A stretch of 64,000 nucleotides of DNA from an uncultured Verrucomicrobiota bacterium (GTDB lineage Bacteria > Verrucomicrobiota > Verrucomicrobiia > Limisphaerales > UBA9464): contig CAZRRO010000017.1 of NCBI GenBank assembly GCA_964602595.1, positions 67,528 to 131,527 of the forward strand. Reading direction: 5' to 3'. Under the pieces are notes generated by a model that worked only from the letters and a program-made list of their open reading frames with translations, was not told where the DNA came from and did not search any database. A program made the translations under genes and the position numbers. Of the stretch, positions 1 through 19,169 are shown one piece after another (position 1 is the stretch's first letter; every line of letters begins with the position of its first letter).

Positions 1-493
1 CGTGTTTCGGGTAGCCGATTTCCGTCAATGCCTGAACGACTGTTGGGAGCGGAGTGCTCGGGAAGAAATTCTCAATATCCACCGAATACACCCAATCTGC
101 GCCGCAGTGCAACGCTGCCGCCTCCACGGCAGATCGACCTTTCACAAACCCATAAACAGCGCTGTCACACTTCACCACTTCCGCTAGATGGAAGCCGAAC
201 CATTTCTGGATCACTTTAAGCGCAACCTTGGGGGCGTTAATTGTCCGGCGTTTCTTTCCCTTCGGAATCGTAAACGTGCGGTAGTATTTTTCGCTGCGCT
301 TGTATAGCGCTCCGGTGAACTTCGTGCTGTAACCGAACAATGTTGCAAGACAGCGAATGGAGACAACAGGTGGAAACCGCTTCTCGCAGAGCGCTTGGAA
401 GTCCTGTGCGTAAAGTTCGCGCACATCTTCCGGAATGGCCTTGAGGAAGTGCTCAACTGAGCCAAATGAAACGAGAAATGGTGGCGGGTTCAT
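1..493 (-). CDS. Reverse transcriptase, retron/Abi-like clade; N-terminal 164 codons only (gene runs off the left window edge)
   Basis: Manual minus-strand translation from ATG 493: MNPPPFLVSFGSVEHFLKAIPEDVRELYAQ...KYYRTFTIPKGKKRRTINAPKVALKVIQKWFGFHLAEVV...VYGFVKGRSAVEAAALHCGADWVYSVDIENFFPS. This matches the RT fingers/palm motifs of retron-type RTs. There is no stop before position 1. The ORF is absent from the supplied track because it is edge-truncated. Confidence 0.8.
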   Translation of the reverse strand, partial: MNPPPFLVSFGSVEHFLKAIPEDVRELYAQDFQALCEKRFPPVVSIRCLATLFGYSTKFTGALYKRSEKYYRTFTIPKGKKRRTINAPKVALKVIQKWFGFHLAEVVKCDSAVYGFVKGRSAVEAAALHCGADWVYSVDIENFFPSTPLPTVVQALTEIGYPKH

Positions 494-495
494 TT

Positions 496-660
496 GTAGA
501 GCAAAGCTTTGTGAGCTTTCGTGAGCTCCGCCAGCTTACTGGCTGTCGGGACGAAGGCACGACAGCCAGTAAGCTGGCGTCCTTCTGTGCTAGACCTTCG
601 CAAATGAGCGTGATGCACGCTCGCGCGACGACCCGCCACCATTTCGTGAACTTTGTCTAC
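496..660 (-). ncRNA. Candidate RT-associated structured RNA (msr-msd-like)
   Basis: Gap between the stop of the 273-aa ORF (657) and the RT ATG (493). It holds a perfect 20-bp stem 529-548/560-579 with an 11-nt loop and no following U-tract. It also holds a 7-bp hairpin 606-612/616-622. Flanking inverted repeats 496-506 (gtagagcaaag) and 651-660 (ctttgtctac) pair over 10 bp with one bulge, like retron a1/a2. Boundaries and the priming G were not identified. Confidence 0.35.
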
Positions 661-1478
661 CATTTGCGCCTCCCAAAGGCAAGCGCCCGCTCGACATCTG
701 AACTGTTCCTTGTTCTGTCGTGAGGGACAGTTGCTAGCCCGTCTTCAGTCAGTGCATACGCCCCATCCACAGAGCGGATGACAAGTTTTTGCCTGCGCAA
801 ATTATCGAGCTTTCGTTCAATCCACGAAACGGAGGGCACTTTGAGCCGCAGTTCTTGTAGGGCGTCAAACAGGGCGGCTGGTTTCACTGGGGCAAAGCGT
901 TTTGCGGCTCGCAGAATTTGGGTCAAGGACGGTAAATCAAACCCTGCGGCAGTCTTTAGAAGTCCGAGCTTAACGTTGAAAACCTTGAAGTATTTTTCAA
1001 CAGCCGAACGGATTTCCCCCTTAGATTCAGAATCACCCTCTGCGCCTTCAGGCAATTCCAGCCAAACATCGTAAACTCCATCCGAGTTGAACGACAAAAA
1101 CGCCTCTCTGACGTGCTTCGGAAAGCTGGAAATAAGCAGCCCGTTGAGACCGGACTCGATTTGGTTTTGAAGGCTATCCCTAACGAGAAGAAACTCGACA
1201 GGGATTCCCAAGTCAGAAGCGATCTTTCCTTTAAGAAACGTGAGCTTGCGGTGCGAGGTTGAATTGTCAGCGGCAGTCTTACCGACAGCAGTTTCTGGGA
1301 CGCTGATCAAGACCGTGTCTGAGTTCGGGCGAACGTGCAATCCGATGGCAAACGTGAACTTCTTTGCCTCCAGATACTCTTTTAATTTGGTGATTTTAGC
1401 TGAGTCCAAGGCGTTTCCAGATTTTGAAGATTGTTCTCGTGTATGCAGTCGTGCGTTTAGGCCACGCGTTTGCCGCAT
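657..1478 (-). CDS. Hypothetical protein with winged-helix-like C-terminus
   Basis: Longest coherent ORF here; I recognise no family. The C-terminus (LTQILRAAKRF...LKVPSVSWIERKLDNLRRQKLVIRSVDGAYALTEDGL) resembles a wHTH. The ATG at 1478 overlaps the upstream gene by 83 nt, and TTG 1409 is an alternative start. Confidence 0.55.
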   Translation of the reverse strand: MRQTRGLNARLHTREQSSKSGNALDSAKITKLKEYLEAKKFTFAIGLHVRPNSDTVLISVPETAVGKTAADNSTSHRKLTFLKGKIASDLGIPVEFLLVRDSLQNQIESGLNGLLISSFPKHVREAFLSFNSDGVYDVWLELPEGAEGDSESKGEIRSAVEKYFKVFNVKLGLLKTAAGFDLPSLTQILRAAKRFAPVKPAALFDALQELRLKVPSVSWIERKLDNLRRQKLVIRSVDGAYALTEDGLATVPHDRTRNSSDVERALAFGRRKW

Positions 1479-1893
1479 GGTTTGAGTGGCCGATCAATTC
1501 GAATGATTTTTGGGATGCCTGAATTCGCTGAGCCGGCTCGTAATCGGCTACGCAGCGGACGGCATAGGCCGACTCTAGCAGTTGAGCAAGCGGGACAATT
1601 GCGCCATTCGCTTCTTGCGCCATCAGTTTTCCGTCATGTTGGCTGATTAATTTGCCCGATTGTTTGCGAATGGCTTCCTTGATCCGCTTTCCAACGCAGT
1701 CTTTCAGAAGATTCGGAATTTCTTTGTGCGAGGTTCTAGCCCAAGCGGGATCAAATTGGCCAAGCATGTCCCGAGTTATCAAATATGAAGCGTAGTAGAA
1801 CCTGTTGAAGGCGCTTCGACCAAAAAGATCAAATTGATTCGCATCGCTCTCGTTCAGAGCGATTTCAGACAATTTCTCGGCAACGACGATCAT
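1396..1893 (-). CDS. HEPN-like helical protein
   Basis: FGRSAFNRFYYASYLITRDMLGQ...SHKEIPNLL and LLESAYAVRCVADYEP resemble the two conserved helices of classical HEPN domains. The start overlaps the hsdS stop (ATGA at 1890-1893). Confidence 0.5.
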   Translation of the reverse strand: MIVVAEKLSEIALNESDANQFDLFGRSAFNRFYYASYLITRDMLGQFDPAWARTSHKEIPNLLKDCVGKRIKEAIRKQSGKLISQHDGKLMAQEANGAIVPLAQLLESAYAVRCVADYEPAQRIQASQKSFELIGHSNHAANAWPKRTTAYTRTIFKIWKRLGLS

Positions 1894-3290
1894 TCTTGCG
1901 AGTTCAGTTCTCCGGTGAAGGCTTTTTGGAGGATGGACTGGCGGAGGCGGGAGGCGCGCTGGAGGTTGGCGGTCACCACCGACTCCAACTCCTCCACCAC
2001 GCTCAACCGCCGCTCCACTTCCGCCACGATCCGCGTCTGCTCGGCGAGGGGCGGGAGTGGAACGTTGATGCCCTTGATAATCGTCGTGTTCAGGTTTGGC
2101 TGCGCCGCGCCTTGGTTAACACCGCGAAGCCGCTCCGTTTGGGTGCGGAGAAAATAGAGGAGATACAGCTTCAGTGGGTAGCCGACATCGAGGAGCGCAG
2201 CCACACCGTCGTTAATGCACCCGCCAATGAGTGTGATCTTCGGAACGCCCAACGTGGCACCGCTGTTTGTGAGCAACAATGTCTGCGGTTCAATGTAGCG
2301 GCTGTGTTCTCGTCCAAGTTCATTGAGCGAGGCTGGCACTGACTTCAGATACGGACTGTTATCGGCTGTCAGTGGACCGACGGTGATCCACGGAACATCG
2401 CCCCCGAAGTATCTTGGGTCGCCGGCGGGTCTTGGAGACGCGCCACGGACGACGTTGGAGAGTTGTTCAATCGTCGCCCACACCCAGCCCTCGGGTGGTT
2501 TCGGCAATACACTCGTGTCGGGCGCTACGGGCTCGACGAAACTTCCGCGGCCCTGCCAGTTTGTCCGGCGCTCAGTGAGCATGCGGGTGAGGAGGGCTTC
2601 GCCGGTTTCGTAAGCAGGTGGCCCGTTCTTGGTGGAGCGTGGAGAGCGGTCGAGTGCGGCTTCGGTGGGGACGAGGCGGCCTTCGCAGGCGGCTTTGAGG
2701 ACGGCGGCGCGGTAGCGTTTGAGGTTGGCCTGCACCCGCCGCAACGCCGCCACCCCCGCCTCCAGCCGCGTGAATTGTTTCTCAATCTCCGCCACAATCC
2801 GCCGCTGTTCGGGGAGGGGGGCGATGGGAATGTCCGTCTCTTTGATCTTCTTGAGAATGATGCGCCGGATCGCCGTGCCCGTCATCTCACCGAGCAGGCG
2901 TTTTGATCCGACGGGCGATTCGAGGAAGTAGCGAAGAAAGCGTGGCTCCAAGACATCACGCTTTGGCTTTAAGAGTGCGACGCTTGAAAGCAGACTGAAC
3001 TCTTCGTCGAGTGTGTTAATCGCGACGTTCCCAGTATTGGCCCCGTCCTTCGTGAGCAGCACATCGCCCAGCTCTGGCTGGCAGCGGGCGTGGATTTCGC
3101 GGTGAACCTTTTCGTCGACGTAAGCGATGTCACCAAGGTCCAACCCCCACGGGCGGATGTTTTTGGACGTGACGTATTTGAAGCGCCCTTTTCCCGGCTC
3201 GGTGTATTGCACGTCCGGGGAATGATGAGTTCCATCGGTAATCCTCGTGCAGACGTCCGATAACTTGGCTGACTTCCAGTTGGTGCTCAT
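1890..3290 (-). CDS. hsdS: Type I restriction-modification specificity subunit HsdS
   Basis: Two target-recognition halves, each followed by a conserved spacer helix (PLPEQRRIVAEIEKQFTRLEAGVAALRRVQANLKRYRAAVLKAA; LPPLAEQTRIVAEVERRLSVVEELESVVTANLQRASRLRQSILQKAF). The N-terminus is HsdS-typical (WKSAKLSDV...TDGTH). Confidence 0.9.
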   Translation of the reverse strand: MSTNWKSAKLSDVCTRITDGTHHSPDVQYTEPGKGRFKYVTSKNIRPWGLDLGDIAYVDEKVHREIHARCQPELGDVLLTKDGANTGNVAINTLDEEFSLLSSVALLKPKRDVLEPRFLRYFLESPVGSKRLLGEMTGTAIRRIILKKIKETDIPIAPLPEQRRIVAEIEKQFTRLEAGVAALRRVQANLKRYRAAVLKAACEGRLVPTEAALDRSPRSTKNGPPAYETGEALLTRMLTERRTNWQGRGSFVEPVAPDTSVLPKPPEGWVWATIEQLSNVVRGASPRPAGDPRYFGGDVPWITVGPLTADNSPYLKSVPASLNELGREHSRYIEPQTLLLTNSGATLGVPKITLIGGCINDGVAALLDVGYPLKLYLLYFLRTQTERLRGVNQGAAQPNLNTTIIKGINVPLPPLAEQTRIVAEVERRLSVVEELESVVTANLQRASRLRQSILQKAFTGELNSQE

Positions 3291-3412
3291 TCCGCGAGGA
3301 CCTCATTGAGTTCATCGGGCCACTTGGGCAGTGGCCCGCCAAAGAGTTGATGCGCTTTGCCAAGATCACCGGGCCGGCAGCGCAGGTTGGCGTGGGCAGG
3401 GAAAGGGTTCAT
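3287..3412 (-). pseudogene. 41-codon ORF carrying a copy of the hsdR C-terminal tail
   Basis: MNPFPAHANLRCRPGDLGKAHQLFGGPLPKWPDELNEVLAE. The last ~25 aa mirror the HsdR C-terminus (GGLGKAHQLFGEQLPQLLDELNTVLAA). ATGA overlaps occur with the TPR stop (3409-3412) and the hsdS start (3287-3290). Confidence 0.5.
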
Positions 3413-5379
3413 GGCGTCAGGGCGTCGTTGAGCAGGCGTTGCACCACGGCGTGGGCGGGTTCGGGCAGCGGGAAGTCGCGCTGGAGCCGTTCCAGGCGGT
3501 CGTGGAATTCGGGCAGGACGCCGGGCCGGGCGCGTTTCAGAGCCAGCGCGGTCTGGGCGAGCAGGAGCCGGGTGCTCACGCTCTGGGGCGCGGCGAGACA
3601 GAGCTGGAGGTTGCCATCCAGGATCTCGCGTTCGCCGCTGAGCTGTCCCCGGTCCGCGCCTTCCATGCCGGCGCAGCGCACCGCGAGCAGCTGTTCCAGG
3701 CGCACGAGATAGCCCATGAAGTCGGCCGGGGCCGGAAGGGCATAGAGCGGGGGCGGCGAGACCAGGGCGGTGCCCGTCTCGCTGCCGACCAACCGCAGCA
3801 GGGCGGACGCCAGCCGGCGGATGGCGTCCCCCGGCGTGGCGGAGGGAAAGGATTCCTCCAATTGGCCGAGGCAAACCGCGTCCAAGGTCCGGACCAGCCG
3901 GAGCTGCAGGACCCACGGTTCGGCCTGGGTGCGGAGGTGCGTGATGATCACGTAATCGGCCGGCGGCTGGGCTTGGCGGGCGTAACCAGCCGCGTCGGCC
4001 TCGGTCCACGCGACCCCGGAAAGCACGAAACCGCCGGGGGGCGGCGCGACGATCCAGGGGACGAGGGTCCGGGTGCGGGCTTCGCTGGCGAGTTCGAGCT
4101 GTTCCGCCAGGAAGTGCGGCACGGCCCGGCTCAGGCGGCCCGAGTCGTCCGCGAGCTGGCGTTCGACCCGCTGGGAGTTGGTGGCCCGCTCCGCGGTGGA
4201 GCCGAGCAGGCAGATACAGGTCGCCCGGTCCGACTTGGCGGGAAAGAGTTCGGCGGCCGGGGAATCGGGCCGCAGCCAGACCGGACCTTCGAGGGTGAGG
4301 AAGGTCATCCGGAGCTCGGCCGGGGCGGCCGACGGTTCGAGCGCGACGCGAGCCCGGGCGAGTTCGGTGTCCCAGTAGGCGAGCGTGGGTTTCCAGTCGG
4401 GCCGGTTGAACGCGTAAAGCCGGTCGAGCAGGACCCGGACGGCCTCGTGCTGGCCCAAGTCGAAGTAGGCCTTGATGAGGTTGTTGCCCACGGCGAGGCC
4501 ATGGGCGGCAGCGTCGAAGTGCGGTTCGGCCAACTGGAGGATCTCGGGGAGGTGCCCCCGGTTGCCCAGGTCGCCGCTGAGCTGCATGAGGAGGTCAGCC
4601 GGCACCGGGCGGGGCGCACGCGCCAGGCTTTCGCGGTAGAGGGCCAGCGCGTCGTCGACCTGGCGATCCGCGAGGGCGGCGCGGGCGAGCCAGAGCTGGG
4701 GCCGCCAACTCCCGGGCACAGCAGCCACGCGACGCTGGGCCGCCAAGGCGGCGGGTTCGCCCCCGCGGTCACGATGCAGGGCGGCAAACCAGACGAGGCC
4801 ATTGTCCTGATTGGGATCCACCTCCAGCGCGTGCCAGAGCGTTTCCTCGGCCAGCGCACCGTTACCGCGGGCGGAGTGAACCTTGGCGAGGTTGGTGAGG
4901 ATGGAGCCTTCTTCGCCGTGGCGGGCCAGATGGTCGCGGAAGACCTGTTCGGCCTCGTCGAGGCGCTTCTCTTCCAGCAGCACGATGCCCCACACGCAGG
5001 CGCCCCGTTCGGGGACGGGATCGATCTCGTGGAGGCGTCGAGCAGCGGCCAGCACGTCGGCCCGGAAGCCATCCTTCAGGGCACCGACGATCAGGCCGTA
5101 AAGGGCCTCGGGTTCGTCCCAATGCTTCTGCAAGTTTCCGAGCAGGACGCTGTCCCGCCACTGCTGGCGGGGGATGAAGAGCTCACGACCGTAGGCATCG
5201 AAGACGGCGATCAGATTGGGGTCCCGGCGCATTTCCTCCACGGTGGCGACGGGCGGAACCGCAGGTGGTGCCGGGGCCGGCGCGGGTGCCGCCACCAGGG
5301 CGACCGGGGGGGACACCGCCGGCGGAGCCGCGGGCGGGGGAGCGGCTTTCCGGCGGAAGAGTTTGTCGAAGAGTCCCAT
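3409..5379 (-). CDS. TPR-repeat protein with Pro/Ala-rich N-terminus and unassigned C-terminal half
   Basis: 656-aa ORF. The central region has TPR-like helical repeats (EAEQVFRDHLARHGEEGSILTNLAKVHSARGNGALAEETLWHALEVDPNQ; ALALYRESLARAP; NNLIKAYFDLGQHEAV). I recognise no family for the C-terminal ~300 aa. The long plus-strand ORF 3331..5523 is its antisense shadow. Confidence 0.75.
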   Translation of the reverse strand: MGLFDKLFRRKAAPPPAAPPAVSPPVALVAAPAPAPAPPAVPPVATVEEMRRDPNLIAVFDAYGRELFIPRQQWRDSVLLGNLQKHWDEPEALYGLIVGALKDGFRADVLAAARRLHEIDPVPERGACVWGIVLLEEKRLDEAEQVFRDHLARHGEEGSILTNLAKVHSARGNGALAEETLWHALEVDPNQDNGLVWFAALHRDRGGEPAALAAQRRVAAVPGSWRPQLWLARAALADRQVDDALALYRESLARAPRPVPADLLMQLSGDLGNRGHLPEILQLAEPHFDAAAHGLAVGNNLIKAYFDLGQHEAVRVLLDRLYAFNRPDWKPTLAYWDTELARARVALEPSAAPAELRMTFLTLEGPVWLRPDSPAAELFPAKSDRATCICLLGSTAERATNSQRVERQLADDSGRLSRAVPHFLAEQLELASEARTRTLVPWIVAPPPGGFVLSGVAWTEADAAGYARQAQPPADYVIITHLRTQAEPWVLQLRLVRTLDAVCLGQLEESFPSATPGDAIRRLASALLRLVGSETGTALVSPPPLYALPAPADFMGYLVRLEQLLAVRCAGMEGADRGQLSGEREILDGNLQLCLAAPQSVSTRLLLAQTALALKRARPGVLPEFHDRLERLQRDFPLPEPAHAVVQRLLNDALTP

Positions 5380-5396: not shown

Positions 5397-5657
5397 TCAG
5401 GCCGCGAGCACCTCGTTGAGTTCATCGAGCCGCTTGGGCAGTGGCCCGCCACAGAGTTGGTGCGCTTTGCCGGACTTCATTTTCGCGCCTCCGGTCGTTT
5501 GCGCGTTTTTTCCCGTTCGGTGACGGCCTCCACCCGGTTCGCACAGGATGGACAGCAACTCGCGGTCGTTGGCGAAGAGGCCGAGCGCCTTCGCCCGCTT
5601 TTGGAGGTCGGCCAGCTCCCGGGCCAGGGCATGCAGTTTTGCGTCTGCCGGTCTCAT
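5397..5657 (-). pseudogene. 86-codon ORF ending in a second copy of the hsdR C-terminal tail
   Basis: ...GGAKMKSGKAHQLCGGPLPKRLDELNEVLAA. The start overlaps the Fic stop (ATGA at 5654-5657). The 3' 75 nt are 67/75 identical to 3287-3361 by manual alignment. Confidence 0.45.
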
Positions 5658-6904
5658 GGCTGGCTCCCAGCCGGTTCGACCGGCAGATCGAGGAACAGTT
5701 GCGGGAAATAGAATTCGTGAATTGTCGCCGGGAAGGCCACCCGCAGCGGGCCTTTGGGGCTGGGCGTCTCAAAGTAGCCGTGTTTCAGCCCCAGCTTGAT
5801 GATCTCCACCGAGACGGTGGCCGCTTTGCCGGTGATTTCCTGCACGCGGGCGCGCGGGATTTCCCCTTCATCCACCAGCGTGCGGGTCACGCGCATGATC
5901 TCCTCGCGGTAGCGTTCCAGATGCAGGGCCTGAAACTGGAAATAGCGTTCCACGCGGGTGCGCAATGCGGGCAGGCTAAGCAGACCGCTCATGAACTGGA
6001 TTTGGTCCAGCATGGTTTCGAGCAGGAACCCGCAGAAATCGGCGAGCGCCGCATCGGAAAGGTTGCCCCGGCCATCGAGATCGCCGCGCCGGCCCTGATC
6101 GGCGGCGGCGAGGCTGGCGAAGTAACGTTGCCGATGGCGGGCCAGCCCGCGCGACAGCGTCCACAGACTGTGACCGGCGATGCCGTGGCGGATCAGTTGC
6201 GCGTGGGATTGCAGCCGGATGACGCGGCCATTGCCATCGCCAAACGGATGGATCCACGCCAGGCGGTGGTGCGCCGCCGCGATGGCCACCACGCGGTCGG
6301 TTTCCAGTATCGTCTTGTCGCCGTAGAAGGAATGGAACCGGCTAAGGAATCTGGGCAGCGCGGCAAAGTCCGGCGGGGTATGCTGGCCGACCTCCACCAT
6401 GAAATCGCGGAGGCCGCCGGGTTGGATCCGGTAACGCTGGCCGCTTTGGGTGACGGCGCAGTGCAAGGGTTCGGGCAGGCGGGTGTAGAACTCCCGATGC
6501 AACCAGCAGAGGAATTCGGGGGAATAGACATCCACCGCTTCCGCGGCGAGACGTTCTTCCATCAGCTTCTCCACGGCGATGTGGGCAACGCTCAACTGCT
6601 GGTTGTCGCGCTGGGTTTGGTTGTCCGAAAAATCACGCTTCAGCGCCCGCTCAATGTCCCGGGGGATGGTTTTGTGGCCTTCGATCAGGTTGGAGTAATA
6701 GCAGTTCATCTCGCGGACGAGATCCGCCACGCGCTGAAGCACCAACGGGGAATGAACCTGGCCGGTCAACCGGCCGGAAGCCTTGAGGATTTCGCAGGTC
6801 AATTCGGCCAGACGGGCGCTTTGCCCCTGGGGGAACAAAGGTTCCATCGCACTGATTTGCCGATACACTTCCATGCTTTCCGAAAATCTATACGAACATC
6901 CCAC
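5654..6904 (-). CDS. Fic/DOC family protein (class II, intramolecular inhibitory helix), C-terminal wHTH-like region
   Basis: Fic motif HPFGDGNGR and N-terminal inhibitory motif SNLIEG ([ST]xxxE[GN]). The track ORF starts at GTG 6904; ATG 6874 or ATG 6847 are plausible true starts. Confidence 0.88.
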   Translation of the reverse strand: MGCSYRFSESMEVYRQISAMEPLFPQGQSARLAELTCEILKASGRLTGQVHSPLVLQRVADLVREMNCYYSNLIEGHKTIPRDIERALKRDFSDNQTQRDNQQLSVAHIAVEKLMEERLAAEAVDVYSPEFLCWLHREFYTRLPEPLHCAVTQSGQRYRIQPGGLRDFMVEVGQHTPPDFAALPRFLSRFHSFYGDKTILETDRVVAIAAAHHRLAWIHPFGDGNGRVIRLQSHAQLIRHGIAGHSLWTLSRGLARHRQRYFASLAAADQGRRGDLDGRGNLSDAALADFCGFLLETMLDQIQFMSGLLSLPALRTRVERYFQFQALHLERYREEIMRVTRTLVDEGEIPRARVQEITGKAATVSVEIIKLGLKHGYFETPSPKGPLRVAFPATIHEFYFPQLFLDLPVEPAGSQP

Positions 6905-7004: not shown

Positions 7005-9806
7005 CTAGGCGGCGAGGACCGTGTTCAGTTCATCCAGCAACTGGGGCAGTTGCTCACCAAAAAGCTGATGGGCTTTGCCGAGGCCGCCGCGCTGGTTGAA
7101 GGGGGAGTATTCCAGATCCTCCGGCTCGATGCTGAGGCTGGTGGCGATGTGGTCGCGGATGAGGCCGAGCCAGGCGAGTTGCTCGGGGGTAAACACGGCG
7201 CCGGCCTTGGCTTTGTCCATGAGCCATTCGTGGAAGCGCTCGCTCACGGAGTCGGCGAAGGGGGCGAGGACGGGTTGCTGTTCCAACGCGAAACGGACGA
7301 GGGCGACGAGGTCGGCGAAACGTCCGGCTTGGGAGCGGCCCTTCACTTTGCCGGGAGCGGTGACGGCGAAGGCGTCCCAGAGGCGGTCCTCGGTCCACGT
7401 GGCGTGGGTATCGCGAAGTTTCTTTTCCAGTTCCTTGAGCATGGGCTCAGTGAGTCGCTGTTTGAACGGGCGGCTGTAGAGGATCTGCAGGGCGTCGATC
7501 TGGGCCTGGTTCTGCGCGAGGTAATCACGGAAGGCCTGGACGAGGCCGGCGGCTTTCGCCTTGGCGGCGGCATCGAAGCCCTGCTCCAGCACTTCGTCCG
7601 GCGTGTAGATGTCGATGGTCTGCTCGGTTTCCTGCTTGAGCGTTTCGAGGGTCTGGCGGAGCGCCGGTTTGTCGAAGGGCGCGCACGCTTCGGCAATCAA
7701 GTCCTTGCGGACGGCCTCCATCTTTTCGGGCGCGACTTCCTCGGGTGAAGCGCCGGGCTTGCCGGTGGCGCGTTCGGCAATGGCGTCGGGATCGAAGGCA
7801 CGGAGGAGCGCACCCGCGAGCGTGGCGGGCGTGTGACCTCCAGAGGCGGTGACGATCTGTTGGCGCTGGGCGGGTTCGAGTTCGCGGTCGAGCCGGGCGA
7901 GGCGCGCGGCGAGCGTGGTGAGGGTGTCTTCATCGCGGCCACCGGGGAAGAGGACGCGCTGGAGCAACGTCTTGAGCGGCACGGTGGGCTGGCGGTCGAG
8001 CGGGCGGGATTCGGTCTTGTCGCTCTCGCACACGCCCACGGCATCCACGATGACGAAACGGGTTTTGGCGCGGGCATCTTCGCCGGAGACGGCTTGCAGG
8101 TCGGTCGGGGAGAGCACGCGTGTGCCGCGCCCTTTCATCTGCTCAAAATAGACGCGGCTACGCACGTCGCGGAGGAAGATGAGAACTTCCAGCGCTTTCA
8201 CATCCGTGCCGGTGGCGATCATGTCCACGGTCACGGCGATGCGCAGCGAGGGTGAGAGGCAGAACTCCTTGATGAGTTCGCGGCCCTTGGCGGGTTTGCC
8301 GGTGACGGGGTGCTTCGCCTGGTAGGTGATCTTCTTGCAGAAGTCGTTGCCCTTGCCGAAGACCTCGCGGCAGAGGTGGACGATGTCCTCGGCGTGGGAA
8401 TCGTCCTTGGCGAAGATGAGCGTCTTGGGCACGAGCGTGCGGCCGGGGAACAGTTCGGTCTGCACCACATCGCGATACGTGCGCAGGATGGTGCGAATCT
8501 GGTCGGGCACGACGACGGAGCGGTCGAGGTCGGCCGGCGTGTAATCGAGATCGTCGGCGAGCACTTCCTGACGGGCCTGGCGCGAGGCTTTGCTGCGGTG
8601 ATCGACGAGGAAGCCTTTGTCCACCTTGCCGCCCGCGTCGGTGACCTTGGTTTTGATGCGGTAAACGTCGTAGCCGACATTCACGCCATCGGTCACGGCG
8701 CGCTCGTGGTTGTATTCGGCGACGCGGTTCTGATGGAAGTAGGCGATGGTCTGCGGCGCTGGCGTGGCGGTGAGGCCGATGAGCGAGGCGTCGAAATATT
8801 CGAGGACCTGCCGCCACAGGTTGTAGATGGAGCGGTGGCACTCGTCGGTGACGATGAAGTCGAACTTCTCGACGGGCACGGTGGGGTTGTAGGCGACATC
8901 GCGGGTGCGATTGCCCAAGGCCTTGGCCAGTTCCGCGCCGGAAAGTTCGTCGGCATCCTCGGTGAGTTCATCCCCACGCAGAATCGAGTAGAGCCGTTGG
9001 ATGGTGCAGATGGTGACGCGGCAGACATCGTCAATGTGCGGCGAGGTCAGATGCTGGACGTTGTAGAGTTCGGTGAAAAGGCGTCCGGTGTCCGGGGTCA
9101 TGAACCGGGCAAATTCATCCCGGGCCTGCTCGCCAAGATTGGCGCGATCCACGAGGAAGAGGACGCGCCGGGCTTTGGCGTATTTGATGAGGCGATAGGT
9201 GAAGGCGCAGGCGGTAAACGTCTTTCCTGCGCCGGTCGCCATGTGGATGAGCGCACGCGGGCGATCCTCGGCGAAGGATTTCTCCAGGCCGGTGATGGCT
9301 TCAATCTGGCAATCGCGCATGCCCGTGGTGACGAGCGGATGGGCGAAGGGCATTTGCGCCAGCCGCCGGCGGAGCGTGGCCGATTCGGCGGCCCACCCGG
9401 CGAGCGTCTCGGGGCGATGGAAGGAGAAGACACGGCGGGACCGAGGCGACGGATCGCGTTCGTCGCGGAAGAAGGTTTCGACGCCGGTGGATTCGTAGAG
9501 GAACGGGAGCGTGCCGGTGAGCCCGGCGGCGAGAAAGGCGGGCAGGCTGTTGGCGTAGCGGGCGGACTGGTCGGCGACGGTCGAGAGCGTCGTGCCTTCT
9601 TTTTTGGCTTCGATCACCCCGACCGCCTTGCGGTCCACCAGCAGGAGGTAATCGCACGGACCGGTCGTGAGCGGGACTTCGCGAAGCGCGATGCCGCGGC
9701 CCGCAGAGAAGTCCACCGACTTGTAATCCTGAACAATCCAGCCACTCGCGGCGAGTTGCGCGTCGATCTGCTGGCGGGCACGTTGTTCTGGCGGGAGTTC
9801 CGGCAT
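7005..9806 (-). CDS. hsdR: Type I restriction enzyme R subunit HsdR (EcoEI-type C-terminal tail)
   Basis: N-terminal nuclease region (QQIDAQLAASGW...CDYLLLVDRKAVGVIEAKK) and SF2 helicase motifs (MATGAGKT, VTDECHR, GLTATP, MKGRGTR). C-terminus ...GGLGKAHQLFGEQLPQLLDELNTVLAA. The best start is ATG 9806 (MPELPPEQRARQQID); the track ORF extending to 10130 is an upstream read-through. Confidence 0.92.
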   Translation of the reverse strand: MPELPPEQRARQQIDAQLAASGWIVQDYKSVDFSAGRGIALREVPLTTGPCDYLLLVDRKAVGVIEAKKEGTTLSTVADQSARYANSLPAFLAAGLTGTLPFLYESTGVETFFRDERDPSPRSRRVFSFHRPETLAGWAAESATLRRRLAQMPFAHPLVTTGMRDCQIEAITGLEKSFAEDRPRALIHMATGAGKTFTACAFTYRLIKYAKARRVLFLVDRANLGEQARDEFARFMTPDTGRLFTELYNVQHLTSPHIDDVCRVTICTIQRLYSILRGDELTEDADELSGAELAKALGNRTRDVAYNPTVPVEKFDFIVTDECHRSIYNLWRQVLEYFDASLIGLTATPAPQTIAYFHQNRVAEYNHERAVTDGVNVGYDVYRIKTKVTDAGGKVDKGFLVDHRSKASRQARQEVLADDLDYTPADLDRSVVVPDQIRTILRTYRDVVQTELFPGRTLVPKTLIFAKDDSHAEDIVHLCREVFGKGNDFCKKITYQAKHPVTGKPAKGRELIKEFCLSPSLRIAVTVDMIATGTDVKALEVLIFLRDVRSRVYFEQMKGRGTRVLSPTDLQAVSGEDARAKTRFVIVDAVGVCESDKTESRPLDRQPTVPLKTLLQRVLFPGGRDEDTLTTLAARLARLDRELEPAQRQQIVTASGGHTPATLAGALLRAFDPDAIAERATGKPGASPEEVAPEKMEAVRKDLIAEACAPFDKPALRQTLETLKQETEQTIDIYTPDEVLEQGFDAAAKAKAAGLVQAFRDYLAQNQAQIDALQILYSRPFKQRLTEPMLKELEKKLRDTHATWTEDRLWDAFAVTAPGKVKGRSQAGRFADLVALVRFALEQQPVLAPFADSVSERFHEWLMDKAKAGAVFTPEQLAWLGLIRDHIATSLSIEPEDLEYSPFNQRGGLGKAHQLFGEQLPQLLDELNTVLAA

Positions 9807-10135
9807 GGACGGCTTCGGGGTCGGTGCCTCGGGCGATGCGAACAATCCTGAACGGAGGAACACCCGGGAGGGAAGCGCGAGTTCGCAGGGAGTCACGACT
9901 TTTGGGGATCGAGAAGGGCTGGCGGACCGGTCATTGTCGTGGCCGTATTCCGCCGACCTATGTTGGCAGCCATCCATGACTCCCTCTCCTGGGATGCCCA
10001 CCTGAGTGCCATTGTCGGCATCGTCGCGGCGCCGGGCACCCTCGTGGGCTGCCAAACACGTCCGTCGCACATTGTCGTGGCTCCTTTCTCGCGAGATCAG
10101 CCAGACCCTGCTGCCGCTTTGAACCACCACTGACC
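9807..10135. promoter_or_regulatory. Divergent intergenic region between hsdR and the PD-(D/E)xK-like/NERD pair, with a repeated 12-mer
   Basis: cattgtcgtggc occurs exactly at 9932-9943 and 10070-10081, with a partial copy cattgtcgg at 10010-10018. This could be a repeated operator-like site. Confidence 0.25.
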
Positions 10136-11149
10136 ATGTTCTGCACCACCGACAAACACTACCTGGCCGAACCGTTCGAGAATGAGGCGCAATTGGAGGC
10201 CGCCATCGCCGCGGTGTCCGCGACGCTGTTTGGGCCGCACCGGATTTACCTGAGCGTGAAGAAGGTCGTCGGCGCCAAGGGCAAGACCAAGAACATCCCG
10301 GACGGCTACCTGATCGACCTGGCCAGCAAGAAGGAGCCGCGGCTCTTCGTCGTGGAGAATGAGCTGGCCCGGCACGAGTCGATCAAGCATGTGGCGGTGC
10401 AGATCCTGGAGTTCTCCCTGTCGTTCGAGACGTCGCCCTTCAAGCTCAAGGCCATCCTGAAGGACGCCCTGAAGGCGAATCCGCCCGCGTTGCAGCAGTG
10501 CGAGACCTTCGCGACCGCCAACGGGCTGGAGAACGTGGATTACCTGCTGGAGCGCCTGATCCGCCAGGATAACGCCTTCAATGCGCTGGTGATCATCGAC
10601 GAGCTGGAGGAGGAGCTGGAGACGGTGCTGCAGAACCGCTTCAAGTTCCCGGTGGAGATACTCACCCTGCGCCGCTTCAAGGCCTCGGACGGGCAGACGG
10701 CCTACGAGTTTGAACCGTTTTTCGCGGACCTGGCGGGTGCCCCCTCCGCCGACGTCGGCAAGGTTTCCGCCGTCCAAGACACGGTGGACCTGTCGGACGT
10801 CGATACGGTGATCGTGCCAGCCCAGGAGGATGGCTTCCAGGAGACGTTCCTCGGGGAGGATCGCTGGTATCAGATCCGCATCCACGCCAGCATGGTGCCG
10901 CGGATCAAATACATCGCCGCCTACCGCACGGCGCCGGTTTCCGCCATCACGCATGTCGCGGCGGTGAAGGACATCCAGCTTTGGAAGGATGGCCCCAAAT
11001 ACGTCCTGAACTTCGCCGGACCCGCCACCGAGGTGGGACCACTGAAGCTCGTGCCCAAACCGACGGGCACGGTGAAAGCCCCACAGGCGCCGCGCTACGC
11101 TTCCTACGCCCGGCTCACCCAGGCCAAGAACTTGGACGAGGTGTTCTGA
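10136..11149 (+). CDS. Hypothetical protein: PD-(D/E)xK-like N-terminal domain plus unassigned beta-rich C-terminal domain
   Basis: IPDGYLIDLASKKEPRLFVVENELARHESIKHVAVQILEF resembles NucS/DUF91-type PD-(D/E)xK cores. I recognise no family for the C-terminus (WYQIRIHASMVPRIKYIAAYRTAPVSAITHVAAVKDIQ...). Confidence 0.6.
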   Translation: MFCTTDKHYLAEPFENEAQLEAAIAAVSATLFGPHRIYLSVKKVVGAKGKTKNIPDGYLIDLASKKEPRLFVVENELARHESIKHVAVQILEFSLSFETSPFKLKAILKDALKANPPALQQCETFATANGLENVDYLLERLIRQDNAFNALVIIDELEEELETVLQNRFKFPVEILTLRRFKASDGQTAYEFEPFFADLAGAPSADVGKVSAVQDTVDLSDVDTVIVPAQEDGFQETFLGEDRWYQIRIHASMVPRIKYIAAYRTAPVSAITHVAAVKDIQLWKDGPKYVLNFAGPATEVGPLKLVPKPTGTVKAPQAPRYASYARLTQAKNLDEVF

Positions 11150-11165
11150 GGCATCCGCCGTATTT

Positions 11166-12128
11166 ATGTTCGCCGCTGCCAGTTCCGAACTGCCACTGGG
11201 CGCCTACCTCGCCGGGTTTGCGGGGCTGGCCGGGCTTCCCGGACTCCTGATCGCTTTCGTCCTCTGGCGACGGCGCAAGCGAAAGGCGGACGGGGAGCGC
11301 CGTCCGATGGAGACCAAGTTGCTGCGACCCGCCGGGTATTGGCTGATCCAGCGGTTGGACGAGAGCCTGCAGGATGGGATCGGGCAGGTGCTGGGCTTGG
11401 CCGTGGTCGGCGGCGGACTGGGAATGGCGGCCTATGTGACCGTCCCGATCCTGTGGGGACTGTTGCTGCACCAAGTCTCCCTGGCCCAACTCCTCGACCA
11501 TCCGCGCTGGTATGTCTTCCTCAGCCTCGCGCTGATCAATGTCGGCGGCGTCGGCGGCGTGATTTACCAATTTTCCCGTTGTCTCCAGATCCTCAAGATC
11601 ATTGAAGCCGTTCGGCTTGGCCTGCGTGGGGAGCAGGCCGTAGGCGAGGCGCTGGCGGATGCGCGGATCGCCGTGGCCGGCTACCGGGTCTTCCATGACG
11701 TGCCCGGGGACGGAAAGTGGAACATCGACCATGTCCTAGTGGGGCCGGCCGGCGTGTTCGTGCTGGAGACGAAGGCCCGGTCCAAGCGGCCCGGCCGCGA
11801 GGGGCAGGCCAAACACGAGGTCCAGTTCGACGGCCGGATGCTGCGATTCCCGAACTGGGACGACCACGAAACCGTCCGGCAGGTGGAACGCAACACGGAG
11901 TGGGTGCGGAAGTTCCTGGCGGACTTCGCACCGCCGGAGCTGGCCTACCAGCCGGTGGTGGTGGTTCCGGGCTGGTATGTGACCTCCCAGGGCAACTACC
12001 CGGTGAAGGCCATGAACACGACCTACCTGCCCAACTACCTCGCGGGCATGAAGCGGCGGTTCGAACCCGACGAATTGAAGGCCGTCATCCGGCGTCTGGA
12101 TGAACGGTGCCGCACGCTGGAATTCTGA
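11166..12128 (+). CDS. Membrane-anchored NERD-domain protein
   Basis: N-terminal hydrophobic helices, then a NERD signature: LRGEQAVGEALADARIAVAGYRVFHDVPGDGKWNIDHVLVGPAGVFVLETKARS. It lies 16 nt downstream of the preceding gene on the same strand. Confidence 0.78.
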   Translation: MFAAASSELPLGAYLAGFAGLAGLPGLLIAFVLWRRRKRKADGERRPMETKLLRPAGYWLIQRLDESLQDGIGQVLGLAVVGGGLGMAAYVTVPILWGLLLHQVSLAQLLDHPRWYVFLSLALINVGGVGGVIYQFSRCLQILKIIEAVRLGLRGEQAVGEALADARIAVAGYRVFHDVPGDGKWNIDHVLVGPAGVFVLETKARSKRPGREGQAKHEVQFDGRMLRFPNWDDHETVRQVERNTEWVRKFLADFAPPELAYQPVVVVPGWYVTSQGNYPVKAMNTTYLPNYLAGMKRRFEPDELKAVIRRLDERCRTLEF

Positions 12129-12711
12129 TTTCAACCACTGCGAAGAGCGGTGAGGCGCTTCCGCCCTTGGGCGAACCCAAATTTGTGCAAACTTGGCACA
12201 GGTTGTCTTCAGCGCAGATAGGAAAGGCGGTTTAGGACTCGATGCGAACTCATCGGAATATCCGGGTAGTTCGTCCCCAAGGCTCCCCCGCCGGCCGGCC
12301 GTTTCGGTCTGGGTTCAGTGTGCACCTACTGCCGTGGCCGGCGCCTTTCGAAGCCGGATTGCCGTCAGCCTACCGTCGCTTGGCAAGGCCGCCGACAGCG
12401 CCCGCAGGTAGGGATTGGAACGAAAACATGGTCCTGCCGTTTCCTTTGATTGCTCAAAACTTGGGCGGGCGAGGAAGCCTCTGTGCAAGCAGCCGCCTCG
12501 CTGCTTGAGCCCCGAGCCAATTCGGGCCACGCCAGGACCTACGGTGTATGCCGTGGGTCTGGTGGCTGGCCGCCCGGGACTTGTCGGACCCGTTCCTGCA
12601 GTTCGGCGTCAACCTGCGGTCACCGGCTCGCCAGCCGCCTCCGCCGCGAGCGTTACGGACTCTTCGTCCGGCTGCCCAAGGAATACGGCGTCGGCGAACC
12701 GCTCCGGCAAC

Positions 12712-13095
12712 TCAGTTCCCGAAGATGAATTCCACGTCCGGCCACCAGCTCAACCGGCGGTGGTCGTTCGTCAGGTGTTTCCAGCCGCGTTCCGCCGCTT
12801 GAGCCCGGATGAAGAAGTCGGGCAGCGGGGTGATCTTCTTGCGGGGCGTGCGGGCGAACACCTGCCCGGCGTGCCAGGCATCCGCCTCCGTCACTTCCAC
12901 TCGGAGCATGGGTGCCAAGGGACCGGCCAGCGTTTCGGGCGTTCGGCCACCTGCCGCCAATTCGGCCAGCGTCACAACGCTGATTGCCAAGTCGTCTTCC
13001 ACCAGGGCTTCGCGGACGGCCGCGGCGGAACTGACGTGATCCGGGTGGCTCTCATCCAGCCAAGCAACGACGGTGGAGGTGTCGATCAGGATCAT
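12712..13095 (-). CDS. vapC: PIN-domain toxin VapC
   Basis: MILIDTSTVVAWL...VVTLAELAAG...ITPLPDFFIRAQAAERGWKHLTND. The acidic residues sit in the PIN pattern. It overlaps the upstream antitoxin gene by 4 nt. Confidence 0.85.
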   Translation of the reverse strand: MILIDTSTVVAWLDESHPDHVSSAAAVREALVEDDLAISVVTLAELAAGGRTPETLAGPLAPMLRVEVTEADAWHAGQVFARTPRKKITPLPDFFIRAQAAERGWKHLTNDHRRLSWWPDVEFIFGN

Positions 13096-13322
13096 TCGCC
13101 CCGGGTCAGCTTGAGCAGTTCCGTGCCGGAAATCGGGCCGTCCCAGGTGCCGGCGTGCTTTTTCACAAACGCCTCGGCTTCCTCGCGGGTCATGCGGCGC
13201 TTCACCGGGCGCAGCGTCACCGAGCCGTCGGGGTGCTTCTCCACCTGCACGTCGGGCCTCCGGGGCAGGAAGCGGGCGAGCGCATAGCGGCCTTTCTCGT
13301 CACATTTGAGCGTCGCAGTCAT
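13092..13322 (-). CDS. AbrB/SpoVT-like antitoxin partner of VapC
   Basis: 76-aa ORF (MTATLKCDEKGRYALARFLP...VTLRPV) immediately upstream of, and overlapping, vapC. Confidence 0.7.
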   Translation of the reverse strand: MTATLKCDEKGRYALARFLPRRPDVQVEKHPDGSVTLRPVKRRMTREEAEAFVKKHAGTWDGPISGTELLKLTRGE

Positions 13323-13771
13323 GCCGGAAGCAGAGGGTGGGAGCGTCCCACCGTCAAGGGGCTGATTGGCTTTGGGGATCGGAACGGACGGGCGGCGGTT
13401 CAGTGCAGGCGTTCATCCGTTGCTCCGTTCATCGACCAGCAGGTCGGTCGCCATGACCGCCAGCACCCGGCTGCAGTCGATGGACTTCAGCGGCGCCATG
13501 AAATCGGGCTGATTGACCGTGACCATCCTTTGTTGGGGGGCGTTTCTGAAGCCCGGCCTGATCGTCGGCTTCAACCGACTGCGCAACGGTGGTCAGGCCA
13601 TTCGCCTCCCGCCCATCCGTGACGCCACGGGTTTAAGGTTAAGGAGTCATCGGGCAGCTCCCGCGCTGGAATCGACCAAGGCGAGAACCGCCCTGCGGAA
13701 CGGTTCGGGGAGATCGGCCCACGCGGCAATCACCCGCCGCAAGTCGGCATCTTCAATCGCTGCGGGCCCCG

Positions 13772-13787
13772 TGTGTGCGTATTTGTG
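13772..13787. repeat. 16-bp exact direct repeat, copy 1 (tgtgtgcgtatttgtg)
   Basis: Identical 16-mer at 14005-14020. The pair brackets the tRNA-like fragment and terminator. Confidence 0.8.
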
Positions 13788-13827
13788 AGTGTCGCCCTGT
13801 AAGTTGCTGTGGTTGCAACGTTTTCCA

Positions 13828-13855
13828 GTAGGTTCAAATCCTAGCCCCGCAACCA
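13828..13855 (+). pseudogene. tRNA 3'-end fragment (T-arm, acceptor 3' strand, CCA); likely att-site remnant
   Basis: gtagg-TTCAAAT-cctag ccccgca a CCA gives a canonical T-loop with flanking G/C and an encoded CCA. No matching 5' acceptor (TGCGGGG), D-arm or anticodon arm lies upstream, so it is not an intact tRNA. Confidence 0.5.
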
Positions 13856-13856
13856 A

Positions 13857-13898
13857 CGGCCCTGAAGGCAACACAGCCTTCAGGGCCGGCCCGTTTTT
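13857..13898 (+). terminator. Intrinsic terminator downstream of the tRNA-like fragment
   Basis: 13-bp stem cggccctgaaggc/gccttcagggccg (13857-13869/13876-13888) with loop aacaca, followed by a ttttt run (13894-13898). Confidence 0.55.
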
Positions 13899-14004
13899 AG
13901 GGGGGGGCCAACAAATCCCAGGCTTCCCTCCCCAATCCGACCGCTCCACTTTGGCGGACCGGAGGTGACTCCAAAAGTCACAAAATGCCCCGGCGTCGGA
14001 TTCT

Positions 14005-14020
14005 TGTGTGCGTATTTGTG
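14005..14020. repeat. 16-bp exact direct repeat, copy 2
   Basis: Same 16-mer as 13772-13787. Confidence 0.8.
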
Positions 14021-14610
14021 CGTGATTTTTGGGAACCGCCGACGGCAGCGCCCGAATGACTTTCGCCAAGGGCAACTTGCTGGCGTCGGTGTAGTGCCCG
14101 TTCATCAGCAAATCGGAATGGCGGGTCAGTTCTTTCGCGATCTGCGGCGGCGCGCCGGCTTGGGCCCGCAGGGGCGTGAACGTGTGCCGAAACGCGTGGA
14201 AGTCTGCCCGCCGGCCGAGATCGTCGAGAAACGAAATTCCCGCCGACGCTTCGTCCACCTTCAGCCCGGCAACCGTCGGGAGGCATCGGAAGGCGGCGAG
14301 TTTCCCCAGCGGGTCCGCCGGGATCTGCGCCCGTAATACCGACGCAGCATCTGGTGCAAAATCAGCAAGGCGCGATGGAAGATCCTAAACAGCAGGCTAT
14401 CGAACGCCCCCAGTTCATCGCCGCTGAACTCGGGCGTGGCGAATTGTCAGCGACATGAGCCTGCCGCCAAGCCCAAGCCGCGTAGCAATACGCCACGGAT
14501 TGCCGAGGCGGAGGAGTCAACGAGATAGGTTCGAGGTCGCGGCCGCTGCTGGAACCAAAAAACAAAATGGCGCAGGAGGTCTTCCTGCGCCGACGGATTT
14601 GTTGCGGAAA

Positions 14611-18878: not shown

Positions 18879-19169
18879 GCGGGGCGGCGATCGTGCGCAA
18901 TTCTTGACGAACAAGTTGAGTGCCCGCTCTCCGGCAAGGCAACAAATGGGTGTCGGTCTACCACGCCACCGGGTCAGGCTCGAAATTGAAGGGCGGGACC
19001 GATACCGCTGAGCAGGCTGTTTTAGCATGGTTCCCACGCGGCGAAGTTTTTGAGACATGAGGCACGTTCGGATTCGTGCCCGGAATCAGGGACCTCGGCA
19101 GGCGGGGCTTGCGGCGGACCGCGAAAAAACGCGAGCGTCCGCGGAAGCCGGCGTCCGGTCGGCCCATTC

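Follow-up and report, generated by a model that had tools for sequence, protein, structure and literature searches.

The left end of the window, as we call the whole 64,000-nt stretch of contig CAZRRO010000017.1 analysed here, encodes on its minus strand what is very probably a type IX retron. It comprises positions 1-1893 plus ~460 nt past the left edge, is carried as cargo of a type I restriction-modification (R-M) operon, and would act by a mechanism like that of Retron-Kva2 from Klebsiella variicola. An earlier note, made from the letters of the window alone, had described a retron-like reverse transcriptase (RT) with HEPN-like and winged-helix-like partners but did not recognise the combination as a described type. 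In this it was mistaken, as HEPN, winged-helix (WH) protein, noncoding RNA (ncRNA), and RT together make up type IX of Mestre et al. 2020 (PMC7736814). By definition, its ncRNA-RT is preceded by the gene of a HEPN protein without the Rx4-6H motif and by an overlapping gene whose product has a winged helix at its C terminus. The type has dedicated PADLOC profiles, a solved complex (PDB 36ht), and a mechanism reported in three July-2026 preprints. Chains of 36ht, which is the Retron-Kva2 complex, are the best or only PDB matches of the three proteins, and we found no evidence that contradicts the type IX assignment.

Reverse transcriptase

The RT frame starts at ATG 493 and continues without interruption for 164 codons before it exits the window edge (translation of 1-493). 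All of the RT motifs quoted in the earlier note (FTIPKGKKRRTINAP, LKVIQKWF, YGFVKGRS, and VYSVDIENFFPS) are found in this translation; the frame is missing from the list of open reading frames (ORFs) because frames that run off an end go unlisted. The fragment aligns with positions 1-163 of the 317 in the PADLOC profile RT_IX (E 5.1e-66) and scores 221 bits, compared to at most 101 bits for any other retron type. In Pfam, it matches only the generic RVT_1 (32.5 bits), and the NCBIfam search recognised retron-like RTs.

The rest of the gene was read on L001, a 2482-nt Logan contig found through the 250-aa WH gene call P0001, which is 100% identical (L-numbers denote retrieved related contigs or loci, P-numbers gene calls). 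L001 is 100% identical to the window across 1950 nt and reaches 532 nt further left; exact-sequence look-ups with a longer, 273-aa version of the WH ORF and with the window HsdR matched no contig. On L001, the full RT is 316 aa long, its frame is open, and RYADDVV is present. Its score against RT_IX rises to 466 bits (E 1e-140, profile positions 1-314 of 317), while the runner-up family, III-A, reaches 240 bits. PADLOC thus classifies the RT, as the earlier note had proposed should be done, as type IX, and the best PADLOC and PDB matches are all retron RTs, in agreement with the retron-type RT first suggested. The match to the Kva2 RT chain (36ht_A) has an E-value of 9.9e-76 and places YADD 215-218 on Kva2 221-224. 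The N-terminal domain of the RT is also present; this domain and the C-terminal helix of the WH protein are both essential in Kva2 (July-2026 preprints). The earlier note had allowed that the RT might turn out to be a pseudogene, but the full-length gene on L001 is intact and, if the window contig continues like L001, the RT is no pseudogene.

HEPN and winged-helix proteins

Both partner ORFs are present on the minus strand as described before, one of 165 aa (1893..1396) and one of 273 aa (1478..657). The 165-aa protein was correctly called HEPN: it matches PADLOC HEPN_IX over its full length (E 6.5e-49) and the Kva2 HEPN chain 36ht_I (E 4.6e-16). Its H56 and R113 align with the Kva2 catalytic residues H64 and R122, and among 31 homologues H56 is nearly invariant and R113 invariant. 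In Kva2, alanine substitution at these positions abolishes toxicity, RNA cleavage, and defence (July-2026 preprints).

The 273-aa ORF does have the winged-helix end that was noted; its start, in contrast, lies most likely at TTG 1409, which makes the protein 250 aa long and lets its gene overlap the HEPN stop by 14 nt. We prefer this start because the P0001 call on the identical contig begins there, as do the alignments to the PADLOC profile HTH_IX and to the Kva2 WH protein. The WH protein matches HTH_IX at positions 5-240 of 240 (E 2.7e-59) and the Kva2 WH chain 36ht_B over residues 11-247 (E 1.2e-20), and it consists of tandem KH-like/HEPN-binding domains followed by a C-terminal helix-turn-helix. 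The most conserved block in the homologue alignment is the C-terminal SSDVERALAxGRxxW, and the C-terminal helix is present. Residues D202, R205, R206, and R212 align with Kva2 D197, R200, K201, and R207, which bind the tip of the multicopy single-stranded DNA (msDNA) and are required for defence (July-2026 preprints). Pfam and NCBIfam gave nothing usable for either HEPN or WH, and only PADLOC and PDB sequences identified them. A search for WH relatives in plasmid and phage collections returned two weak plasmid matches and no phage matches.

Noncoding RNA

The 163-nt spacer between the WH and RT genes (494-656), on which the earlier note is silent, is a structured retron ncRNA. Its fold has a minimum free energy of -105.6 kcal/mol (z = -6.05 versus shuffles). 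An alignment of 33 distinct homologous spacers contains 45 base pairs in six helices with 96% of cells paired, compared with 36-48% in slid-partner controls; none of 500 shuffles equalled the true alignment. Compensatory changes occur in 30 of the 45 pairs, and no helix is broken in the window sequence. The 3' arm of the closing long-range helix falls within RT codons 2-7 (N-P-P-P-F-L, kept in homologues), and bases 475-488 are therefore constrained twice, by RNA structure and by coding sequence.

Within the closing helix, msr stem-loop 1 (SL1) is prolonged by a basal helix (628-625/601-598). The msd hairpin is the putative template of the msDNA stem-loop. The loop letters CCUUCG of the hairpin hardly vary, if at all, in the spacer alignment and predict CGAAGG as the sequence of the msDNA tip. 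G and A residues at the msDNA tip are contacted by WH and essential for defence in Yin1/Sen3 and Kva2 (July-2026 preprints). Stem-loop 3 (SL3) is flanked by G520 and G502. Judging from Kva2 G121/G139, these may be the opposing and the branching (priming) guanosine, respectively. The spacing of these landmarks closely follows Kva2: SL1 is 17 nt long in both (G18-C34 in Kva2), the G-to-G distance around SL3 is 18 nt in both, and SL1 lies 86 nt from the opposing G here versus 87 nt in Kva2. An Rfam search of window positions 1-4000 in E-value mode found only chance-level, miRNA-like hairpin matches on the ncRNA, with E above 1. There is no curated Rfam family for the type IX ncRNA, and the proposed identification rests on covariation and on landmark spacing relative to the Kva2 description.

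Table 1. Coordinates of the retron, its RNA elements, and the surrounding operon (window positions, unless another locus is named).
Feature	Position	Strand	Evidence
Retron type IX RT, N-terminal 164 of 316 codons; remainder left of window	1..493	-	translation, RT_IX profile, L001
Retron ncRNA (msr-msd), ~171 nt	475..645	-	folding energy, covariation in 33 spacers
ncRNA closing long-range helix	5' arm 645-632, 3' arm 488-475	-	covariation alignment
msr stem-loop 1, GAGCGUG-CAU-CACGCUC	606..622	-	helices 2 and 3: 97-99% paired, 6 covarying pairs
msd hairpin, 19-bp stem and 11-nt loop UGCCUUCGUCC	530..578	-	helices 4 and 5: 16 of 18 pairs covary
Stem-loop 3, AAAGCU-CACAA-AGCUUU	519-503; with flanking G520 and G502, 502..520	-	conserved CGAAAG...CUUUGCU; two inner pairs covary
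WH protein, 250 aa from TTG 1409 (most likely start); ORF open back to ATG 1478	657..1409	-	HTH_IX, 36ht_B
HEPN RNase effector (predicted toxin), 165 aa	1396..1893	-	HEPN_IX, 36ht_I
hsdS, type I R-M specificity subunit, 466 aa	1890..3290	-	Methylase_S E 7.7e-25; Specificity_I E 1.8e-67
hsdR 3'-end copy, third, 75 nt; stop overlaps hsdS start	3287..3361	-	direct-repeat family D1, tblastn
TPR-repeat protein, 656 aa, cassette between hsdR and hsdS	3409..5379	-	TPR_19, TPR_14 matches
Fic-domain protein, SoFic-like, 416 aa, embedded cassette	5654..6904	-	Fic E 4.5e-12; PADLOC SoFic E 1.1e-25
hsdR, restriction subunit, EcoEI_R_C type, first gene of operon	7005..9977	-	ResIII, EcoEI_R_C, HSDR_N matches; 990-aa gene call P0009
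hsdR 3'-end copies	7005-7079 (hsdR), 5397-5471 (after Fic), 3287-3361 (after TPR)	-	D1 repeats; tblastn with HsdR C-terminal 45 aa
hsdM 5'-fragment/cassette sites, L015	11876-12007, 14170-15627		
hsdM 5'-fragment/cassette sites, L018	11871-12158, 12873-13088		
hsdM 5'-fragment/cassette sites, L045	16966-17238, 18175-19647		
hsdM 5'-fragment/cassette site, L044	20609-20794		

Comparison with known retrons and proposed mechanism

The window locus and Kva2, Sen3, and Yin1 are built from four matching parts in one order (HEPN, overlapping WH, ncRNA, RT) and have in common a noncanonical HEPN active site of split His and Arg in place of Rx4-6H, YADD and the N-terminal extension of the RT, and the msDNA-tip-contacting residues of WH. 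With Kva2, the window locus further shares the plan of the ncRNA: SL1 spans 17 nt, the msd hairpin is long and its tip conserved, and two G 18 nt apart flank SL3. Unlike these retrons, its host is probably from the Verrucomicrobiota rather than the Enterobacterales, it is nested between hsdS and hsdM, and its HEPN start overlaps hsdS, leaving no free-standing upstream promoter region. Type III-A ranks second among PADLOC families for the RT, at 240 bits versus 466 for RT_IX, but its effector is a PRTase-wHTH fusion, whereas the partners in the window match type IX profiles only.

The mechanism that we propose is taken from Kva2, Sen3, and Yin1, in which its steps have been demonstrated and which provide anti-phage defence when cloned alone (July-2026 preprints). 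By homology, the window RT would bind the ncRNA and reverse-copy the msd hairpin into msDNA. RT-msDNA and WH would then assemble around HEPN dimers into a higher-order complex, in which the composite His/Arg site would be occluded and the toxin silent. A phage factor may disturb this cage; the triggers reported so far are cleavage of the exposed stem-loop of the msDNA by a nuclease and the action of a DNA-binding protein, for example D5 of phage T5. The freed HEPN RNase would be expected to cut tRNA anticodon loops and rRNA, so that translation would halt and the infection would be aborted.

Relatives of the retron

Genome and metagenome scans with the WH-homologue alignment yielded 41 loci, and L001 and L002 bring the tblastn survey to 43, or 42 besides L001. 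The order HEPN, WH, RT is constant wherever a locus is long enough to reveal it, and the spacer measures 157-175 nt in all but L017, from which the ncRNA is deleted. Thus, HEPN and WH are kept beside RT homologues in all sufficiently long loci, as the earlier note would have had it if they are genuine partners. L017 has the RT most similar to that of the window (81% identity) and occupies the same hsdS-hsdM slot, but its ncRNA is missing altogether, along with RT codons 1-5 (1484-1499). This deletion is a single event between short ATTTC repeats, and L017 is a dead retron.

RT and ncRNA similarity to the window correlate with one another (Spearman 0.78), but their ranking conflicts with that of HEPN and WH (window compared with L002, L008, L014, L015, L017, and L024). 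In L008, L024, and L017, the RT is 71-81% identical to the window RT, yet HEPN and WH are only 29-42% identical; the ncRNA is 91-94% identical in L008 and L024 and deleted in L017. L014 and L015, in turn, have HEPN and WH at 46-54% but RTs at 55-59%. These identities suggest exchange between RT-ncRNA and HEPN-WH modules, or very unequal rates.

Two relatives sit next to other defence-related genes: L006 (706-2802) has a type IX retron directly downstream of a BREX BrxL gene, and L002 (35-1888) has one directly downstream of an OLD-like ATPase-TOPRIM gene. Both settings fit type IX retrons being frequently lodged inside or beside other defence systems. Type IX retrons are known to co-localise with DNA-targeting systems (Carabias et al.).

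Type I R-M operon

The retron is physically chained to type I R-M genes on a single strand, as was noted earlier. The minus-strand order is hsdR, Fic, TPR, hsdS, HEPN, WH, ncRNA, RT, and hsdM. hsdS and the HEPN gene share ATGA at 1893-1890, and the hsdM that was thought possible beyond the edge is present on L001, where the HsdM N-terminus (MSNPTTLVQKLWNCCNILRDDGLS) starts 5 nt after the RT stop. On L001, only the first 24 codons of hsdM can be read; the gene is complete in the syntenic loci L015 and L002. A promoter and terminator scan of the minus strand around the hsdS/HEPN junction found nothing meaningful. Co-transcription of the retron with the R-M operon is plausible in view of the 4-nt and 5-nt junctions and the absence of such signals.

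The AT-richness previously noticed in this segment is real: GC content is 0.49-0.56 in the parts of the retron versus 0.65 in the remaining window. Among the neighbours, hsdS is at 0.60, and Fic, TPR, and hsdR are at 0.62-0.71, so that the retron lies 10-15 points below its surroundings. At third codon positions, the retron genes have 0.53-0.60 GC versus 0.72-0.85 for other genes. The window HsdR has >100 relatives at 84-93% identity, several of which are named from Verrucomicrobiales metagenome-assembled genomes. The retron was probably acquired horizontally, while the R-M operon is probably verrucomicrobial.

The nesting of a type IX retron between hsdS and hsdM recurs in L015, L018, and L017, and is seen from one side in L014 and L004 (hsdS side) and in L002 (hsdM side). 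HsdR identity to the window is 66% in L015 and 49% in L018. Where type IX loci have long flanks, however, hsd genes are mostly absent from the neighbourhood (e.g. L003, L005, L008, L010, and L013). In addition, operons with HsdR 92-93% identical to that of the window (L044, L045, and L047) hold different cargo after hsdS. Our reading is therefore that the retron is low-GC cargo, lodged in a variable slot between hsdS and hsdM, rather than a dedicated R-M partner.

The cargo of these relatives is diverse. In L044 (GCA_049840435.1, JASGKY010000025.1; HsdR 92%), a type III-A retron (17160-19643; PRTase_III-A E 3e-71, RT_III-A E 2e-168) directly follows hsdS and is itself followed by an AbiGi-like gene. 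The L045 slot holds a 315-aa protein with PIN and then MazE-Fic, and the L047 slot holds two proteins without assigned identity (167 and 367 aa); the 167-aa protein was considered as a HEPN_IX relative and rejected, as it has no PADLOC match. Slot contents of L015 match PADLOC PDC-M30, "PDC" candidates being derived from embedded genes.

Defence systems embedded in type I R-M operons have been documented (Payne et al. 2024, bioRxiv 10.1101/2024.01.29.577857), and TgvAB in V. cholerae VPI-2 is another example of embedded defence (PMC11411939). The window operon resembles these in having a complete defence system between hsd genes on the same strand, along with further cassettes (SoFic-like Fic, TPR). 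Retrons are unmentioned in the main text of Payne et al. 2024.

Cassette boundaries

The operon differs from those of Payne et al. 2024 in that its cassette boundaries are marked by duplicated hsd ends, and we found no description of such marks. The last 75 nt of hsdR (~25 codons, GKAHQLFG..LP..LDELN.VLAA) occur in triplicate with 75-89% identity (direct-repeat family D1), one copy after the Fic gene and another after the TPR gene. A 240-aa GTG ORF (3287..4009) and an 86-aa ORF (5397..5657) were rejected as genes, as only their last ~25 codons, the hsdR 3'-end copies, are meaningful. In the second slot, fragments of the hsdM 5' end follow cassettes in L015, L018, L044, and L045, ahead of the next cassette or the full hsdM, and these mirror the hsdR 3'-end copies in the first slot. 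The C-terminal ~55 residues of HsdS are 77-94% identical in most such operons (53% in L018), while the remaining HsdS is variable. Altogether, this suggests that cassettes are exchanged by recombination through conserved gene ends and that the copies may be scars of insertion or exchange.

We offer as a tentative and rather doubtful extension that the operon family is a cassette-collecting platform, in which defence modules, among them at least two retron types, have been swapped into the fixed hsdR-hsdS and hsdS-hsdM slots by recombination via the conserved hsdR 3', hsdS 3', and hsdM 5' ends, each cassette boundary keeping a duplicated piece of a gene end as a result, with the type IX retron perhaps regulated by, or synergising with, the R-M system and so more than independent cargo.

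Further genes of the island can be noted. The TPR protein has no match among defence profiles but has a 51% identical homologue in the same place in L015, and a TPR gene is also in this place in L044; we regard it as a defence candidate. Beside hsdR, on the other strand (10136-14258), are a 337-aa protein without a family match, a NERD-domain protein (11166-12128), and an integrase fragment (13647-14258; Phage_integrase E 6e-4, under the Pfam cutoff). In L044, too, an integrase lies immediately upstream of hsdR. The R-M island is possibly a present or former integrative element.

Alternative explanations

The RT might have belonged to another class, namely group II intron, DRT/UG, or Abi, in which case the locus would be no retron. 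Its generic similarities, to RVT_1 (32.5 bits) and to the group II intron model TIGR04416 (25.8 bits), are weak, and the latter is far under the 300-bit cutoff. The RT has just 316 aa, lacks a maturase or endonuclease domain, and ends 5 nt before hsdM on L001; Rfam shows no group II intron RNA in window positions 1-4000. With retron RTs as best PADLOC and PDB matches and a covarying msr-msd RNA directly upstream, this explanation has next to no chance of being right, and a group II intron, DRT, or Abi RT is effectively refuted by profile scores and size. A decaying, nonworking remnant of a retron is conceivable in view of L017, a close relative in the same slot that has lost its ncRNA and the first five RT codons, and of the hsdM fragments and frameshifts in related operons, which indicate frequent rearrangement; the C-terminal half of the RT also lies outside the window. 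We think this very improbable, as none of the three ORFs is interrupted, L001 carries a full-length RT with its YADD motif, catalytic and contact residues are conserved, and every ncRNA helix is intact.

Another alternative is that the retron is functionally coupled to the R-M enzyme around it, such that the R-M complex, its inhibition by anti-restriction proteins of phages, or msDNA methylation by it might gate HEPN. This would parallel EcoprrI, which masks the PrrC anticodon nuclease; we draw the comparison as a functional analogy only, and it differs in that the window HEPN, by homology to Kva2, has an inhibitor of its own (WH with msDNA-RT). The tight nesting, with ATGA shared with hsdS and hsdM 5 nt past the RT, would suit such coupling, as would the recurrence of the hsdS-retron IX-hsdM arrangement with partners as diverged as those of L015 and L018 (also L017, L014, L004, and L002). 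However, most long-flank type IX loci have no hsd gene nearby, and Kva2, Sen3, and Yin1 defend when cloned alone. The slot also appears to be a general one for cargo, given the unrelated cassettes that it contains in operons whose HsdR is 92% identical (type III-A retron and AbiGi, PIN, MazE-Fic, and others), and the retron has antitoxin logic of its own. We therefore judge coupling unlikely, though less so than decay.

Several points weigh against our preferred reading, a working type IX retron carried as R-M cargo. The window itself has half of the RT, and completeness depends on a separate contig identical over 1950 nt. Identity of HEPN and WH to Kva2 is modest (E 1e-16 to 1e-20), and trigger specificity and assembly geometry could differ; the published type IX complexes already differ in form (sheet, ring, and asymmetric particle). 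We placed the priming guanosine by analogy, and the three July-2026 preprints, which describe the ncRNA architecture differently, disagree on it. Finally, the scan found no promoter-like site on the minus strand upstream of HEPN, so expression needs read-through from hsdS or a type of promoter outside the scan model.

Implications

The retron itself adds little that is new, as the structure and mechanism of its family, of which it is a diverged, probably verrucomicrobial member, were described in 2026; it does indicate that the catalytic residues, msDNA-tip contacts, and ncRNA architecture hold far beyond the Enterobacterales. Its context is more useful. Embedding in a type I R-M operon fits a known phenomenon, and among near-identical R-M operons the hsdS-hsdM slot is occupied variously by retrons of types IX and III-A, toxin-antitoxin-like pairs, and uncharacterised genes. 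The slots thereby mark some of their occupants as defence candidates, including the TPR protein in the window and, in its relatives, the pair of 167 and 367 aa and the pair of the 315-aa protein and PIN. The duplicated hsd ends at cassette boundaries give a concrete, testable picture of how defence systems may become embedded in one another.

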